A DNA stretch of 64,000 nt, from assembly GCA_937907475.1 (NCBI GenBank), contig CALCIK010000228.1, forward strand, positions 5,050-69,049. Direction: 5' to 3'. The stretch is from an uncultured Bacteroidota bacterium. Lineage in GTDB: Bacteria > Bacteroidota > Bacteroidia > Chitinophagales > UBA2359. Shown here one piece after another: positions 3 through 7,061 of this stretch. The notes under the pieces were generated by a model. It was not told the origin of the DNA. It did no database searches and worked only from the letters and a program-made list of their open reading frames with translations. The first letter of the stretch is position 1. Every line of letters begins with the position of its first letter. The position numbers and the translations under genes are program-made.

Positions 3-2255
3 AGCTTTGCGCAGTATTTTGGCATAGGCAGCCCTGTTTTGGTGGTGCAAAACAAAATAGATGCCACCTCCCATTTACACGACCCCTACCCGTATCCAAG
101 AGTTCAAAATGAGTTAAAAACTAAATTTCCCGCCATAGTTGATTTTATAGGGGTAAGCACCAAAACAGGCAAGGGTTTTATAGTACTGGCAGATGCCATA
201 GAGCGTTTGTTTACCGAAAACCCCACCCTCCGCAACGATTTATTAAACAAGCCCCTGCCCAAAACATGGTTGCAAGTGCGCCACCGCATACGCCAAGAGC
301 AAGAAAACGAAAAAGGCTTAGACCTTATACCTTTCAGCCTTTTTGAACAATGGTGCCATGATGCTGGCATAGCCGCTTCTGCCCCCACCCTTGCCCATTT
401 TTTACACCAAACCGGCGTTGTGTATTACCAACCTCCCTATTTTTCTGGGCAAATTATCCTAAATCAGGCATGGGCAATAGAAGCCGTTTACCAAGTCCTT
501 GACCGCGAAGGCGATTATTTTGAGATATTGGAATATCGCCAAGGAACATTAGATTATACTACCCTATGCAGAATTTGGGCAAAAAATACCAATGATGAGC
601 GTAACTTGTTTATAGATTTTATGTTGAGCAGCGAGTTGTGTTTTGAAACCACCCCAAACAAAAAATACCATACGCCCTTACAAGAGCGCACTTTTACCGT
701 ACCACAAGCTTTGCCCCCCACAGAGCCGCCCTCTATTGCCACAGAGCAAACCCGCCTGCAAGCAAATGAAACTATTACACGGTCTTATACCTTTTTACCC
801 TCCATCTTTATACAGCGTTTTATGATTAGGGCGCATCGATTTTCGGAACATCGGTATATGTGGCAGCACGGCATCGGTTTATATAATACTGATGAAGCGT
901 ATGCCGTAGTAAGGGCAAATTATACGCACGGTCAGCACACCATTACCATTCATTACAATGCAGCCGCCGTAGCCAGCAAATTGCTACAAGCTATAGAAGA
1001 AGAAGTGCAAATTTTAGAAGCCGAAGATAAAGACCAATCTAAACCATTTAAAGAAAAATCGGGTTTTAAAGCATTGAACTATTATCAAAAACCAAAAACT
1101 GAATCAGTTATGTCCCAAAACAAACTTAACCTTTTCATTTCGTACTCGCCCGAAGATGAAACCTTTAAAAAAGCATTTGATAAGCATTTAACAAGCCTTA
1201 GACGAAGTGAGCAAATTGCTACTTGGGATAGCAGTAACGTGTTGGCAGGCAGTAATTTAAGCTCTGCCATAGAAGGCCTTCAAAATGCCCATGTCATTCT
1301 AATTTTAGTAAGTACCAACTACATTTCAGATGATAAATTGTGGAAACAGCATTTGCTAAATGCTATATATCGGCATGAACGAGGTTTTGCCCGCATAATC
1401 CCCATAAAAATTACCGATTTTGACGATAAAAATCTCCCCTTCAGCAAAATACAGGGACTGCCCCGAAATGGAAAAGCCATAGGCTCACCTAACAACAATG
1501 CAGCATGGTTAGAAGTAGCCAAAGAAATTCGCGCAGTGGTAGAGGATATGTTGGCAAAAGGCATTGGCGTTCAAAATAATATACCACCACAGTACAAGCA
1601 AGAAGGACAGGGTAATAACAAACCAAAGGATAACCCATATCCACAGAGCAAAGAGAAGAAAAAAGTACTCTTTATTTGCTCCAGCCCAAGTAATGTGGAT
1701 GTAACCCTAAATTTTGGTACCGAGTTTCGAAATATCGCAGATGCGCTCAATAGTAGCTCTCATAGGCAAAAATTCAACATCTCTATTAAAACCGGTGTAC
1801 AATTTGACGAACTTACACGGTTGTTATTACAAGAAAAATCCGATGTACTGCATATTTCCATGCACAGTTCACTTGAAAAAGGTGGTTTATTATTTGAGTA
1901 CAAAGATAGCAGCTTACAACCGCTTAACCCTGAATCCCTAACAGGTATGATACGAATTGCAAACTACCAATTAGATTTGGTAGTTTTGAGCGCTTGTAAC
2001 TCAAAAGCTCACGCAGTAGCTGTTGCCAGCCTTACTACTGTTGCAAATGTAATTGGCATGAATGATTTAATTTCGGACGAAGCGGCAGCTTATTACGCTG
2101 AGAAATTTTATGAAATTTATTTTGACCATCAAAATGTCTTGCAAGCTCACCAAAATGCTCAAGAATCGTTAAAAGCTAACAGCAGAATTGGAGATCATAC
2201 TATCTTTGCGGAAGTTCCTTATATCCAAAAATTAAACAACCACATACTACCATGA
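3..2255 (+). CDS. Roco-family protein, 5'-truncated by window edge: (Roc GTPase end)-COR-TIR-linker-CHAT caspase-like protease
   Basis: Frame is open from base 3 (SFAQYFGIGSPVLVVQNKID) and is collinear with the paralogue at 5482. Roc G4 NKID and G5 VSTKTG; COR motifs LPKTWLQVR, FLHQTGVVYY, ILNQAWAIEAVYQVLD; TIR LFISYSPED...IIPIKI...PFSKIQGLP; CHAT KVLFICSSP, DVLHISMHS (His codon 1863) and LVVLSACNS (Cys codon 1995). Confidence 0.92.
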   Translation, partial: SFAQYFGIGSPVLVVQNKIDATSHLHDPYPYPRVQNELKTKFPAIVDFIGVSTKTGKGFIVLADAIERLFTENPTLRNDLLNKPLPKTWLQVRHRIRQEQENEKGLDLIPFSLFEQWCHDAGIAASAPTLAHFLHQTGVVYYQPPYFSGQIILNQAWAIEAVYQVLDREGDYFEILEYRQGTLDYTTLCRIWAKNTNDERNLFIDFMLSSELCFETTPNKKYHTPLQERTFTVPQALPPTEPPSIATEQTRLQANETITRSYTFLPSIFIQRFMIRAHRFSEHRYMWQHGIGLYNTDEAYAVVRANYTHGQHTITIHYNAAAVASKLLQAIEEEVQILEAEDKDQSKPFKEKSGFKALNYYQKPKTESVMSQNKLNLFISYSPEDETFKKAFDKHLTSLRRSEQIATWDSSNVLAGSNLSSAIEGLQNAHVILILVSTNYISDDKLWKQHLLNAIYRHERGFARIIPIKITDFDDKNLPFSKIQGLPRNGKAIGSPNNNAAWLEVAKEIRAVVEDMLAKGIGVQNNIPPQYKQEGQGNNKPKDNPYPQSKEKKKVLFICSSPSNVDVTLNFGTEFRNIADALNSSSHRQKFNISIKTGVQFDELTRLLLQEKSDVLHISMHSSLEKGGLLFEYKDSSLQPLNPESLTGMIRIANYQLDLVVLSACNSKAHAVAVASLTTVANVIGMNDLISDEAAAYYAEKFYEIYFDHQNVLQAHQNAQESLKANSRIGDHTIFAEVPYIQKLNNHILP

Positions 2256-3061
2256 GTGAATTTCAAACAATTTTACAGAGTTACCACTATAATAGTGTAG
2301 TGCTACCCAGAACAGGCATAAAGCCACTACAAATGTTGAAACAAGACCAAAAAGGCACTGTTACTTCATTAGACATGAACATAGATGATTTTTTTAAGCC
2401 CGATATTGTGGCGAAGCCTAGCACTAAAACCGAAAAAGTCATCAGCATACAAGATGAACGCAAAGTAGATGTTAATGGCAAAGTAGATATTAGTTTTTTG
2501 GAACAACTACTTGCTAAATTTGGAATAGGCAGTATAAATGCCCATTTTAAATCAGCACCAAATTTTACTATTAGGGTTGGTATCAACAATATTGAAGTAG
2601 ATACAATTGGGCTTGGAACATTAGATAGATTTCTTAGTACTTCCATTTTACAAGAAAAAGAATTCGGGACATGGGGGAAAGAATTAAAAGATAGTAATTT
2701 GTTCGTAATAACCAGTGTTTTGAAATCAAATGAAATAAACATCACCGTTGAATCAAACAGCAGTTTAGACACCGGTGCTGCAGTTAAATTAGAAAACATC
2801 ATTGATTTCAATGCCGGCTATGACAAAACAAATCTAAAAGATTATAGTCTGAAACACGAAAGTGAGAGCGAGCAAATGGTATTCGGAATTAGAGGCGTTA
2901 GGATAAACTATGACAAACCGGGCTTGTTTGACCGCAGTGAAAAAGTCCGATTTACCATAGGAAAAGAGCTCAATAATGTTGTCATGAAAGGCGTAGAAGA
3001 TATAGAACCAATTTGGTTAGACGCTACTAATTGGGATTTAACACCACCTGTTCGCGACTAA
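2252..3061 (+). CDS. bGSDM: Bacterial gasdermin (pore-forming effector)
   Basis: 269 aa. YNSVVLPRTGIKPL, NLFVITSVLKSNEI and MVFGIRGVRI match recalled bGSDM motifs (Runella YSLVAYPKTSIRPL, NFFVATSLLRAKKM, IVFGVKLVRL). Short C-terminal tail after VVMK/G. ATGA overlap with the CHAT protease gene. Confidence 0.88.
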   Translation: MSEFQTILQSYHYNSVVLPRTGIKPLQMLKQDQKGTVTSLDMNIDDFFKPDIVAKPSTKTEKVISIQDERKVDVNGKVDISFLEQLLAKFGIGSINAHFKSAPNFTIRVGINNIEVDTIGLGTLDRFLSTSILQEKEFGTWGKELKDSNLFVITSVLKSNEINITVESNSSLDTGAAVKLENIIDFNAGYDKTNLKDYSLKHESESEQMVFGIRGVRINYDKPGLFDRSEKVRFTIGKELNNVVMKGVEDIEPIWLDATNWDLTPPVRD

Positions 3062-3063
3062 TA

Positions 3064-3135
3064 ATGTCTGCCCCGTTTTTTATTTCCCCCTATCGGAAAA
3101 GCACCCCCGTTACCCCCAAGGATTTATATAGGTAA
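3064..3135 (+). other. 23-codon mini-ORF coupled to the gasdermin stop; possible N-terminal relic of a deleted gene
   Basis: ATG lies 2 nt after the gasdermin TAA; MSAPFFISPYRKSTPVTPKDLYR*. Confidence 0.35.
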
Positions 3136-3181
3136 TAGCGTGCAACTTTATGTTGCTTCGTGTTCTTTGTATTTCACCTCG

Positions 3182-3220
3182 TTTGCTTGGTGGTTAGCAA
3201 CCATTTAACCACCAAGCAAA
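3182..3220. repeat. Perfect 15-bp inverted repeat with 9-nt loop
   Basis: tttgcttggtggtta-gcaaccatt-taaccaccaagcaaa; no U-tract on either strand. Confidence 0.85.
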
Positions 3221-3223
3221 TAA

Positions 3224-3424
3224 AGGCGGGCACAAAACGCACAAAAGTATACTGCGCCAAGCCTTAAACCAAGCCCCCAAGATGATATAGAAATTGTACA
3301 GTTGCAAGCCCGCCTCAGCAGTGTAGAACAGCAAGAGTGCCTGGGTACTATCTCCTATGACAATGCCCGATTAGAGAAGAACCAAATTACCGCCGCCCTG
3401 CTTAGTTGGTTAGGCAAACAATAA
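3224..3424 (+). pseudogene. EAD11-like (effector-associated domain) relic, start-less
   Basis: Open frame with no ATG: ...DDIEIVQLQARLSSVEQQECLGTISYDNARLEKNQITAALLSWLGKQ*. It matches the recalled EAD11 pattern I..L.AR...L......G.IS...A....N.I..ALL. Confidence 0.65.
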
Positions 3425-3426
3425 GT

Positions 3427-3456
3427 TTTGCAAATTTTATTATTTGGTTATTTTTG
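3427..3456 (+). promoter_or_regulatory. Bacteroidota sigma-70 promoter for the second Roco gene
   Basis: TTTG (3427-3430), 18-nt spacer, TATTTTTG (3449-3456), about 55 nt before the ATG at 3510. Confidence 0.55.
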
Positions 3457-3509
3457 TGCAAAGAGAAGGGAAGCCTTACAAAACTCCTGTAATTCTTAAT
3501 CCATAAGCC

Positions 3510-6500
3510 ATGAGCCAACTTGCCTTAGACCTTATAACCCAAGAAGCCACACAAAAAACCGGCTACCTTGAACTGGGTAAATGCGGACTAACCCCCGACA
3601 ACCCTCAGCTGCAACAAGTATGGAAGGAATTAGGTAAACTCAGCCACTTGCAAACACTGATTTTGAGTGATGCGTGGTGGGAGTGGGATGGTGAAAAGAA
3701 ATATTGGAAAGAAAAGCAAAGTCAAAATTCAGGAAACGATAACTTTTTGGCAGAACACCCCGATACGCTGCAAGAATTGTATAATTTAACAACCTACATT
3801 TGCGGGGGATTTCGGGATAATAGATGGCAAATAAGCAAAATCCCCCAATTTGCCAGCCCCAATAAATTGCTATACTTATATTTAAGTGTCAATCAAATTG
3901 CCCGAATAGAAAACCTAGAAAACCTGCCCGATTTGCAGGTATTAGACCTTAGCGGTAACCAATTCACTAAGATAGCAAACTTAGATAACCTGCCCAAGTT
4001 GGAGCGGTTAAACCTTAACAACAACTACCTCACCAAGATAGAAAACTTAGATAACCTGCCTAAGTTGCAAGAGTTAATGTTTGGTTACAACCAACTCTCT
4101 AAGATAGAAAACTTAGAGAGGCTGCCCAATTTGCAGGGGTTATTCCTAAACAACAATCAACTCAGCATTATAGAAAACTTAGATAGGCTACCTAAATTGA
4201 AAAAGTTAGCCCTTGTAAATAATAAAATTGCTAAAATAGGGACTACGTTTGACTTGCCTTGTTTAGAAAAATTAGACCTAAGCAAACATCAACTTACCAA
4301 AATAGAAAATTTAGATAAACTGCCCAATTTACATGAGTTAGACCTAAGCCATAATTACCTCACCAAGATAGAAAACTTGGATAGTTTGTATAATTTACAA
4401 GTGTTGAACCTTGAAAGCAACCAACTCACCAAGATTGAAAACTTAGATAACCTGCCCAATTTGCATGAACTAAAATTTGGGAGTAATCAACTTGCCAAGA
4501 TTGAGAACTTAGATAACTTACCTAAGTTAAAAAAACTGTATTTTAGTTTAAGGTTTTCTCCAAATTATGGGAACGCACTCGCTAAGATTGAAAACTTAGA
4601 TAATCTATCAAATTTGGAGGAGTTATATCTTGGAGGCAACCGCATCACCAAGATAGAAAACTTAGATAGACTATCTAATTTACACAGATTAGATATTTGG
4701 GCTAACTCACTCACTAAAATAGAAAATTTAGACAACCTACCAAATTTACAATGGCTAACTCTTGGTAATAATGGAATTACCAAAATAGAAAATTTAGACA
4801 ACTTATTACTACTAAAAACTTTAGACCTCAGCGTCAATCTAATCACCAAGATAGAAAACTTAGATAAGCTGCTCAATTTGCAGGGGTTATTTCTTAACTT
4901 CAACCAACTCACCAAGATAGAAAATTTAGATAGCTATCTCAATTTGCAGGGGTTAGACCTTAGCAATAACAAAATCACCACCCCCATTACCCTTACCTTC
5001 TTGCGGCAGTTCCCTAAATTGTATTCGTTAAATTTGAGCAGTAACCCCATATCCAATATCCAATCCGAAATAATTTCGGATAGTGATTGTTTACCCACCC
5101 TACGCACCTACCTACAAGACTTAGAAGAAGGCGGCGAACCCAACAACGAAGTAAAAGTACTGTTTATAGGCAATGGTAATGTGGGCAAAACACAAATAGC
5201 CGGGCGCTTGGCGTGGCAAGATAAGTTTGTTTTTAATATACAACACCACTCTACTCATGCCATTTGTTTGCTTAGGCGGCATTTACCCACCACCCTGCTA
5301 CCACAAGGTTTGCAACTCAACCTTTGGGATTTTGGGGGGCAAGCTATGTACCATGCTACTCACCGTTTGTTTATGCGCACCCGCGCCTTGTTTTTATTGG
5401 TTTGGGACAAAGAAAACGAAGCCGCTCCGTACCATATTTGGGAAAACCGGCAGTACAACAATGAAAAACTGCTCTACTGGCTCAGTTATGCGCAGTATTT
5501 TGGCAAGGGTAGCCCTGTTTTGGTGTTACAAAACAAAAAAGATGCCACCGCCCATTTACCCGACCCCTACCCGCCGCTGCCGGTACAGCGGGAGCTAAAA
5601 AACAAATTTCCCGCCATAGTTGATTTTATATGGGTAAGTGCTAAAACCGGCAATGGTTTTAGAGTGCTGGTAGATACCATAGAGCGTTTGTTTACCCAAA
5701 ACCCCACCCTCCGCAACGATTTAGTAAACAAACCCCTGCCCAAAACTTGGTTGCAAGTGCGCCACCGCATACGCCAAGAGCAAGAAAAAGAAGAAGGCTT
5801 GCCCATTATACCGTTCAGCCTTTTTGAACAATGGTGCCAAGATGCCGGCATAGCCACCTCTGCTCCTACCCTTGTCTATTTTTTACACCAAACCGGGGTT
5901 TTGTATTACCAACCTCCCTATTTTTCGGGGCAAATTATCCTAAATCAGGCATGGGCAATAGAAGCTGTTTACCAAGTCCTTGACCGCGAAGGCGATTATT
6001 TTGAGCTATTGGAACATTACCAAGGAAAATTAGATTATACCACGCTATGCAAAATTTGGGCAAAAAATACCAATGATGAGCGCAACTTGTTTATAGATTT
6101 TATGTTGAGCAGCGAGCTGTGTTTTGAAACCACCTCATTTGAAAAATACAATGCCAGCTTACAAGAGCGCACTTTTACCATACCGCAAGCATTGCCCACC
6201 ACAGAGCCGCCCACTATTGCCACAGAGCAAACCCGTCTGCAAGCAACTGAAATTGCTACACGATCTTATGACTTTTTACCCTCCGTCTTTATACAGCGTT
6301 TTATTATTAGAGCGCATCGGTTTTCGGAGCATCAGGATATGTGGCAGCATGGCATTGGTTTGTCTTATACTAAAGAAGATTACGCCGTAGTAAGGGCAAA
6401 TTATACGCTCGGTCAGCACACCATTACCATTCATTACAACCCAGCCGCCGATGCAAGTGGATTACTAAAAGCCATTCAAGAAGAACTGCAAATTTTAGAA

Positions 6501-7061
6501 GCCGAAGATAAAGACCAACCTAATCTATTTAAAGAAAATTCGGGTTTTAAAGCATTGAATTATTACCAAAAACAGGAGATTAAGCCACTCATGACCCAAA
6601 ACAAACTTAACCTTTTCATTTCGTACTCGCCTGAAGATGAAGCCTTTAAAAAAGCATTAGATAAGCATTTAACAAGCCTTAAACGAAGTGAGCAAATTGC
6701 TACATGGGATAGCAGTAACGTTTTAGCAGGCAGCAATTTAAGCTCTGCCATAGAAAGCCTTCAAAATGCCCATGTCATTCTAATTTTAGTAAGTACCAAC
6801 TACATTTCAGATGATAAATTGTGGAAACAGCATTTGCTAAATGCTATATATCGGCATGAACGAGGTTTTGCCCGCATAATCCCCATAAAAATTACCGATT
6901 TTGACGATAAAAATCTCCCCTTCAGCAAAATACAGGGATTGCCCCGAAATGGAACATCCATAGGCTCACCCAACAACGATGAAGCATGGGTAGAAGTAGT
7001 CAAAGAAATTCGCGCAGTGGTAGAGGATATGTTGGGAATAGGCATTTGTATTTTTCGGTAA
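3510..7061 (+). CDS. Roco-family protein LRR-Roc-COR-TIR (no protease domain)
   Basis: About 18 SDS22-like 22-aa LRRs. Intact Roc motifs GNGNVGKT (G1), LWDFGGQ (G3), QNKKD (G4), VSAKTG (G5). COR domain, then a C-terminal TIR ending 10 codons after the TIR helix. No signal peptide. Confidence 0.93.
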   Translation: MSQLALDLITQEATQKTGYLELGKCGLTPDNPQLQQVWKELGKLSHLQTLILSDAWWEWDGEKKYWKEKQSQNSGNDNFLAEHPDTLQELYNLTTYICGGFRDNRWQISKIPQFASPNKLLYLYLSVNQIARIENLENLPDLQVLDLSGNQFTKIANLDNLPKLERLNLNNNYLTKIENLDNLPKLQELMFGYNQLSKIENLERLPNLQGLFLNNNQLSIIENLDRLPKLKKLALVNNKIAKIGTTFDLPCLEKLDLSKHQLTKIENLDKLPNLHELDLSHNYLTKIENLDSLYNLQVLNLESNQLTKIENLDNLPNLHELKFGSNQLAKIENLDNLPKLKKLYFSLRFSPNYGNALAKIENLDNLSNLEELYLGGNRITKIENLDRLSNLHRLDIWANSLTKIENLDNLPNLQWLTLGNNGITKIENLDNLLLLKTLDLSVNLITKIENLDKLLNLQGLFLNFNQLTKIENLDSYLNLQGLDLSNNKITTPITLTFLRQFPKLYSLNLSSNPISNIQSEIISDSDCLPTLRTYLQDLEEGGEPNNEVKVLFIGNGNVGKTQIAGRLAWQDKFVFNIQHHSTHAICLLRRHLPTTLLPQGLQLNLWDFGGQAMYHATHRLFMRTRALFLLVWDKENEAAPYHIWENRQYNNEKLLYWLSYAQYFGKGSPVLVLQNKKDATAHLPDPYPPLPVQRELKNKFPAIVDFIWVSAKTGNGFRVLVDTIERLFTQNPTLRNDLVNKPLPKTWLQVRHRIRQEQEKEEGLPIIPFSLFEQWCQDAGIATSAPTLVYFLHQTGVLYYQPPYFSGQIILNQAWAIEAVYQVLDREGDYFELLEHYQGKLDYTTLCKIWAKNTNDERNLFIDFMLSSELCFETTSFEKYNASLQERTFTIPQALPTTEPPTIATEQTRLQATEIATRSYDFLPSVFIQRFIIRAHRFSEHQDMWQHGIGLSYTKEDYAVVRANYTLGQHTITIHYNPAADASGLLKAIQEELQILEAEDKDQPNLFKENSGFKALNYYQKQEIKPLMTQNKLNLFISYSPEDEAFKKALDKHLTSLKRSEQIATWDSSNVLAGSNLSSAIESLQNAHVILILVSTNYISDDKLWKQHLLNAIYRHERGFARIIPIKITDFDDKNLPFSKIQGLPRNGTSIGSPNNDEAWVEVVKEIRAVVEDMLGIGICIFR
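3861..5060 (+). repeat. Intragenic 66-bp LRR tandem array
   Basis: Repeating (T)KIENLDNLPxLxxLxLxxNQL unit, DNA 'accaagatagaaaacttagat'; one repeat has a 7-aa insertion (SLRFSPNYGN). Confidence 0.9.
5482..7046 (+). repeat. Direct repeat of bases 1-1565 (paralogous Roc-COR-TIR segment)
   Basis: Constant offset of 5481 bp with no indels (1 to 5482; ggcatt at 1560 to 7041); high but patchy identity. Confidence 0.93.

Follow-up and report, generated by a model that had tools for sequence, protein, structure and literature searches.

A cysteine-free bacterial gasdermin encoded next to an LRR-Roc-COR-TIR-CHAT protein in an uncultured Bacteroidota bacterium

Can a bacterial gasdermin that contains no cysteine, and hence cannot be palmitoylated, be part of a cleavage-activated killing module? 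The question is raised by a gene in a 64,000-nucleotide stretch of DNA (the window; positions 5050-69049 of contig C228) from the 5.7-Mb genome of an uncultured Bacteroidota bacterium. The gene (2252..3061, + strand, ATG start) encodes a protein of 269 amino acids without any Cys, as an initial annotation of the DNA had noted when it proposed that the protein is a gasdermin. From the analysis of the gene, its neighbours and related loci, we consider it quite probable that the product is a functional-looking gasdermin of a naturally Cys-less branch, which would act in a two-gene cell-suicide module with the LRR-Roc-COR-TIR-CHAT protein encoded just upstream.

The assignment to the bacterial gasdermins (bGSDMs) was confirmed by profile, sequence and structure comparisons. 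The NCBIfam model NF051890 (prok_gasdermin) matched residues 8-212 with 118.3 bits (cutoff 100), and PADLOC's model for bGSDMs gave 3.5e-33; a Pfam scan of the protein gave no match. Sequence matches in the PDB were the bGSDMs of Vitiosangium (7N51/8SL0, 1.8e-12) and Runella (7N52, 3.5e-5). An AlphaFold2 (AF2) model built on 47 relatives had a predicted local distance difference test score (pLDDT) of 80.6 and a predicted template modelling (TM) score of 0.80. Its best Foldseek matches in the PDB were inactive bGSDM crystal structures, 7N51 (TM 0.66/0.68), 7N52 and 7N50 (probability 1.00, TM 0.53-0.68), followed by eukaryotic gasdermins; the model adopts the fold of the gasdermin N-terminal domain in its autoinhibited conformation. 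It also ends as bGSDMs do, with a short peptide after an exposed loop and no large C-terminal domain: a strand at 233-235 is followed by a coil at 236-247 of lower confidence (pLDDT 69 for block 241-250) and by a better-defined tail (pLDDT 86 for residues 251-260), which we infer to be autoinhibitory. In conclusion, positions 2252-3061 encode a bona fide bacterial gasdermin.

As in other bGSDM loci, a protease gene is adjacent to the gasdermin gene, the upstream gene ending in a CHAT domain. The window contains the C-terminal 750 of the 1356 amino acids of this presumed activating protease (3..2255, + strand; Pfam and BLASTP). Its gene starts at position 3234 of the contig, 1815 nucleotides upstream of the window, and its stop codon overlaps the gasdermin start in the sequence ATGA (2252-2255). 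In the full-length protein Pfam recognised, in this order, LRR (LRR_4, 1.4e-57), Roc (5.8e-18), COR-A (1.1e-23), COR-B (9.9e-11), TIR (TIR_2, 3.6e-10) and CHAT (3.1e-10) domains. The TIR domain, between COR and CHAT, is encoded at 1134..1451 (+ strand; TIR_2 1.5e-10 and PADLOC ThsB-like TIR 6.8e-27), and the CHAT domain, a caspase-like protease domain of clan CD, at 1719..2189 (+ strand; Pfam 1.3e-10). The putative catalytic His (codon 1863-1865, in HISMH) and Cys (codon 1995-1997, in SACNS) aligned with HITVH796 and IAC840NS of the Runella LRR-Roc-COR-CHAT protease, which BLASTP matched at 6e-36 (24% over 717 amino acids, plus the CHAT core). The protein has the LRR-Roc-COR region and the C-terminal CHAT domain with a His/Cys dyad that characterise the Runella type, the TIR domain being an addition.

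The gasdermin and its ROCO-CHAT partner are thus a further gasdermin-protease module in a known class of bacterial abortive-infection systems. In the Runella zeae system (PDB 7N52, pore 9V2S; Johnson et al., 2021 preprint; Johnson et al., Science 2022), the LRR-Roc-COR-CHAT protease was shown experimentally to activate the bGSDM by cutting after L247; this bGSDM is palmitoylated on C3 and requires Gly at P1'. Translation of the Runella locus gave a bGSDM that begins MEC3NDPF and continues, at the cut, FNRVL247/G248ENMAL...GFIEVT (the slash marks the bond), so that the palmitoylated Cys, the cut and the tail given in the initial annotation agree with both the papers and the locus. The two systems share a two-gene operon, protease then gasdermin, and homologous proteases with the same LRR-Roc-COR...CHAT order; their gasdermins have the same fold, comparable loops (about 12 residues in Runella, 236-247 in the window protein), tails of 21-23 residues and coinciding scissile-bond columns with Gly at P1'. 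They differ in that the window gasdermin is only about 23% identical to that of Runella and lacks C3 together with any other Cys, that its P1 residue would be Lys instead of Leu, that the window protease carries TIR between COR and CHAT, and that the window locus contains in addition a protease-less LRR-Roc-COR-TIR paralogue. The 2021 preprint gives H796 and C804 as the catalytic residues of the Runella protease; in the 927-amino-acid protein derived from the genome (L021, 5192-7975), residue 796 is His (HITVH) and residue 804 is Phe, and the catalytic Cys column of CHAT aligns with C840 (IACNS), so that C804 is probably a numbering slip.

Three other systems are useful for comparison. Of the solved structures, the one nearest to the window protein, in sequence (1.8e-12) as well as in fold (TM 0.66/0.68), is the bGSDM of Vitiosangium sp. 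(7N51, 8SL0, 9A84). Both share an autoinhibited architecture with a C-terminal brace, but the Vitiosangium protein requires a palmitoylated C4 for toxicity and has a 29-residue tail whose native cut site is unmapped. The Gillisia bGSDM (Gilli_2518), like that of the window, naturally lacks the acylated Cys and adjoins a protease; cut-site or pore data for it were not found in the literature searched, and a preprint on CARD-gasdermin systems contained no cut-site or Cys information. Finally, the genome under study has a second system of its own on contig C45 (L004), composed of an LRR-Roc-COR-EAD11-CHAT protein (1796-5518) and a bGSDM of 267 amino acids (5551-6354). The C45 gasdermin is 38% identical to that of the window, Cys-free, and ends in RVILKGPEDLTPIWL (RVILK/GPEDLTPIWL). 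The C45 protease has the same backbone as the window protease, except that EAD11 (effector-associated domain 11) occupies the slot held by TIR; a partner gene without a protease is absent from C45.

The domains and homologies described above are observed, and the steps of the mechanism that we propose are transposed from the Runella system. The LRR and Roc-COR regions would sense a trigger, probably phage infection, and switch on the C-terminal CHAT protease. CHAT would then cut the gasdermin in the exposed 236-247 loop, K246/G247 being slightly favoured over all other bonds taken together, M245/K246 having perhaps a minor share of the likelihood and another bond of the loop the rest. The 23-residue autoinhibitory tail would leave, and the fragment 1-246 would oligomerise and insert into the cytoplasmic membrane as a beta-barrel pore, killing the cell, probably as a form of abortive infection. 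This pore would have no palmitoyl anchor, because the gasdermin has no Cys.

The position of the putative cut was predicted from an alignment of 129 bGSDMs made with MAFFT L-INS-i. The C-terminus of the window protein, as obtained by translation of the open reading frame, reads ELNNVVMK up to K246, in agreement with the initial annotation, and then continues from G247 to D269 with the predicted autoinhibitory peptide GVEDIEPIWLDATNWDLTPPVRD (23 residues, 2990..3058, + strand; AF2 model and conservation). Residues E249, D250, P253, W255 and L256 of this tail are invariant in the four closest relatives, and its length lies within the range of 16-29 residues of characterised bGSDMs. The predicted exposed loop (residues 236-247, GKELNNVVMKG; 2957..2992, + strand) is the AF2 coil that follows the strand 233-235. 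In the alignment, L247 and G248 of Runella share columns with K246 (codon aaa) and G247 (codon ggc) of the window protein (TIDKKQDFNRVL/G versus TIGKELNNVVMK/G), which places the predicted scissile bond at 2987..2992 (+ strand). The residues in these columns form a family-wide motif, hydrophobic-[KR]-[GSA]-x-E-D, in which E-D usually follows the small residue. The K246 column contains R in 63 sequences, K in 36, L in 10 and M in 3, that is, a basic residue in 99/129 (77%); the G247 column contains Gly, Ser or Ala in 97/129 (62 G, 27 S and 8 A, besides 8 D and 6 N); and the residue before K246 is hydrophobic in 117/129 (V50, L37, M15, I7, F6, Y2).

Because the Runella bond aligns with it, because it lies in the modelled loop, and because it complies with the rule of Johnson et al. 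for active truncations (a cut in the exposed loop before Gly, Ala or Ser), K246/G247 is the best homology-based prediction and the most probable bond, although our preference for it is modest. The cut had been placed at M245 or K246, ahead of G247, with the release of about 23 residues; the homology to the Runella bond retains K246/G247 and a 23-residue tail from that proposal, and the exact bond stays a prediction. The site would be a specificity variant, not the same site as in Runella, since of the two residues only P1' is kept: the window protein has Lys-Gly where the Runella type has Leu-Gly. Metacaspases and paracaspases cut after Arg or Lys (Johnson et al., 2021 preprint). Basic and Leu states at the K246 column alternate repeatedly on the tree (17 changes), consistent with a position that determines specificity and has co-evolved with the protease. 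A search for a corresponding acidic/hydrophobic switch in the S1 pocket of the proteases, between K/R and Leu sites, gave no clean correlation in the five CHAT-gasdermin pairs available.

The absence of Cys was analysed at the level of the family. A k-mer-indexed homologue search with the gasdermin returned the protein itself and one fragment 80% identical to it, and the profile version of this search 6 proteins; a profile made from the four closest gasdermins found no relative in the genome contigs. Searching 1.84 billion representatives exhaustively with HMMER yielded 171 relatives. Of the 46 full-length relatives among ranks 1-50, none carries a Cys at residues 2-8 and 29 are entirely Cys-free. 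Among 133 full-length bGSDM representatives, 36 have an N-terminal Cys and 97 do not, 57 having no Cys at all. Cys-bearing bGSDMs have M-x-C-x-D-P in common before helix 1, and those without begin about three residues later, straight at helix 1. In a FastTree phylogeny of 129 bGSDM sequences, from which the first 10 residues were left out, the window gasdermin falls within a 66-row half devoid of any N-terminal Cys, and the trait requires 13 changes on the tree versus 31.6 in shuffles (0/500 shuffles as low). For a single protein, a lack of Cys over 269 amino acids is only marginally unusual, since its chance probability is about 0.056 (window Cys content 1.07%, 24 open reading frames of at least 250 amino acids). 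The palmitoyl pockets of Cys-bearing and Cys-less proteins were also compared: both groups have hydrophobic residues at positions 89 and 111, without an evident increase in side-chain size; of the four Vitiosangium pocket positions, two were out of register in this comparison (mafft --keeplength).

Johnson et al. described the N-terminal Cys as conserved in 'most' bacterial gasdermins and, in the same founding paper on bGSDMs, already pointed out that the Gillisia bGSDM lacks it. Lack of Cys characterises the clade, is already on record and is no peculiarity of the window gene. As the signal sits at the level of the clade, the Cys-less state is ordinary for the family, and the N-terminal Cys, although frequent in bGSDMs, does not define it, since it is missing from 97 of the 133 representatives and from all 46 nearest relatives. 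The rarity implied in the initial annotation was therefore not supported by the very alignment with bGSDM families that it had suggested as a check, in which the nearest relatives likewise lack the N-terminal Cys; its proposal of pore formation without N-terminal acylation is correct in that S-acylation of an N-terminal Cys is impossible, pore formation itself being presumed. It follows logically that the window gasdermin, if active at all, acts without S-acylation.

Several observations weigh against the proposed mechanism. The TIR domain inserted in the protease has no counterpart in Runella, and the module may for this reason not work exactly like the Runella one. The sole bGSDM site of a CHAT protease that has been mapped has Leu, not Lys, at P1; a CHAT domain from genome G087, 37% identical to that of the window, is paired with a gasdermin that has Leu at the aligned position; and an alignment shifted by one residue (RVL-GE versus VMKGV) brings the conserved hydrophobic residue M245 to P1. 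Lastly, replacement of the Cys by Ala in the bGSDMs of Runella, Vitiosangium and Nostoc removed most of their toxicity and leakage, so that activity of a Cys-less gasdermin is not to be assumed, and the window protein could be a weaker or differently acting effector. Two alternatives were weighed.

In the first, the system is the same and CHAT cuts after the conserved hydrophobic residue, at M245 (atg, 2984-2986, + strand)/K246, one residue upstream of the bond proposed above, which would release a 24-residue tail starting with Lys. The Leu at P1 in Runella agrees with this main rival bond, as do the hydrophobic character of the residue preceding the basic one in 117/129 relatives and the presence of Leu itself at the basic position in relatives with similar CHAT domains. 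Another CHAT protease, Csx29, cleaves Csx30 after Leu or Met. However, the multiple alignment requires no gap to place Runella L247 on K246 and G248 on G247; the Gly needed at P1' in Runella corresponds to the small-residue column, which is that of G247 and not of K246; and a K or R in 77% of relatives is what is expected of the P1 position of clan CD proteases. We regard a cut at M245/K246 as rather unlikely, though as the foremost competitor of K246/G247.

In the second alternative, the Cys-less gasdermin would be weak or non-lytic as an effector, for example by depolarising the membrane through small pores or by playing a role secondary to that of TIR, and the module would owe most of its killing to something else. 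It is favoured by the effects of losing the palmitoylated Cys in Runella, Vitiosangium and Nostoc (toxicity nearly abolished and liposome leakage strongly reduced) and by the additional TIR domain of the protease, which has a ThsB-like match. On the other hand, the large Cys-less clade has retained the whole gasdermin fold together with the inhibitory tail and the motif at the cut, and this conservation implies that the same activation by cleavage has been selected for. The C45 system of this genome, moreover, combines a Cys-less gasdermin with a protease devoid of TIR. We regard a weak effector as improbable, more so than a displaced cut.

An error in the annotated start, with a true N-terminus that is longer and includes a Cys, is scarcely credible: the open frame extends to 293 amino acids, versus 269 called, and one Cys is encoded (in YYLCGSS) in the 24 in-frame codons between the TAA at 2177-2179 and the ATG at 2252, but none of these codons is ATG, GTG or TTG, as previously noted for this interval; they belong, in another frame, to the 3' end of the protease gene; the C45 paralogue has just 2 codons upstream before a stop; and relatives from independent assemblies begin at the same alignment position. 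The longer N-terminus was rejected on the lack of an in-frame start codon. A promoter/terminator scan around the gasdermin gene gave nothing that exceeded the shuffled background.

The cleavage-activated, Cys-less gasdermin that we favour bears on how the family has been studied. In the literature searched, all mechanistic work on bGSDMs used Cys-bearing proteins, in which palmitoylation matters, and there is a large natural clade without such a Cys; the window gasdermin or its C45 paralogue would lend itself well to studies of pore formation that is independent of palmitoyl and of CHAT cleavage specific for Lys/Arg. Since the alignment column of the Runella P1 holds Lys or Arg in most relatives, Arg/Lys specificity is predicted for the majority of the CHAT proteases that accompany bGSDMs. 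A broader proposal is speculative and, in our estimate, doubtful: that the palmitoylated, Leu-cut Runella protein is the exception and that about half of the sampled bGSDMs, among them that of the window, insert independently of palmitoyl and are cut after Lys or Arg by a metacaspase-like CHAT. If it were true, palmitoyl might be replaced by Trp and Leu residues of the tail or by a borrowed lipid that occupies the hydrophobic groove, and the TIR domain and the protease-less LRR-Roc-COR-TIR partner could add a second layer of sensing or signalling to gasdermin activation.

This protease-less paralogue is encoded downstream of the gasdermin gene (3510..7061, + strand; 1183 amino acids, Pfam) and has a diverged LRR array. 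Over 2475 nucleotides (Roc-COR-TIR) its gene shares 86% DNA identity with the upstream gene, and over the first 1 kb or so 73%, the LRR stretch between the two blocks giving no match. Homology ends directly after TIR, position 1565 of the window, in the upstream gene, corresponding to 7046, 15 nucleotides before the stop of the paralogue. The LRR-Roc-COR-TIR protein may serve as an additional sensor, acting through the copy that has the protease. A start-less EAD11 remnant (3224..3424, + strand; Pfam PF19964, 2.7e-12, 46.9 bits for a cutoff of 26, profile positions 31-77 of 80) lies in the spacer that separates the gasdermin gene from this second ROCO gene. It resembles the EAD11 found between COR and CHAT in the C45 system, and its presence suggests that the locus once held an EAD11-containing gene or was rearranged.

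Related loci in other genomes show further arrangements. Genome G087 (L014) encodes a Cys-free bGSDM of 264 amino acids (4497-5291) and a partner of 555 amino acids (5312-6979). The bGSDM reads VLL-NDEDIP at the cut-site columns, and the partner, for which Pfam gave no match, is 37% identical at its C-terminus to the window CHAT domain; judged by these sequences, the putative P1 has naturally switched from Lys to Leu in a pair whose protease is closely related to that of the window. A subfamily of gasdermin-like proteins of 233 amino acids was found at four loci (L016, 4868-5569; L017, 7161-7862; L018, 7462-8163; L019, 8258-8827). No protease-sized neighbours of these genes were seen in the lists of open reading frames, and two of the four loci have an in-frame stop (TAA in G123 and TAG in G575). 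The proteins end in ...LVTDNRxFF, without a C-terminal inhibitory tail, and may be cleavage-independent relatives of gasdermins.

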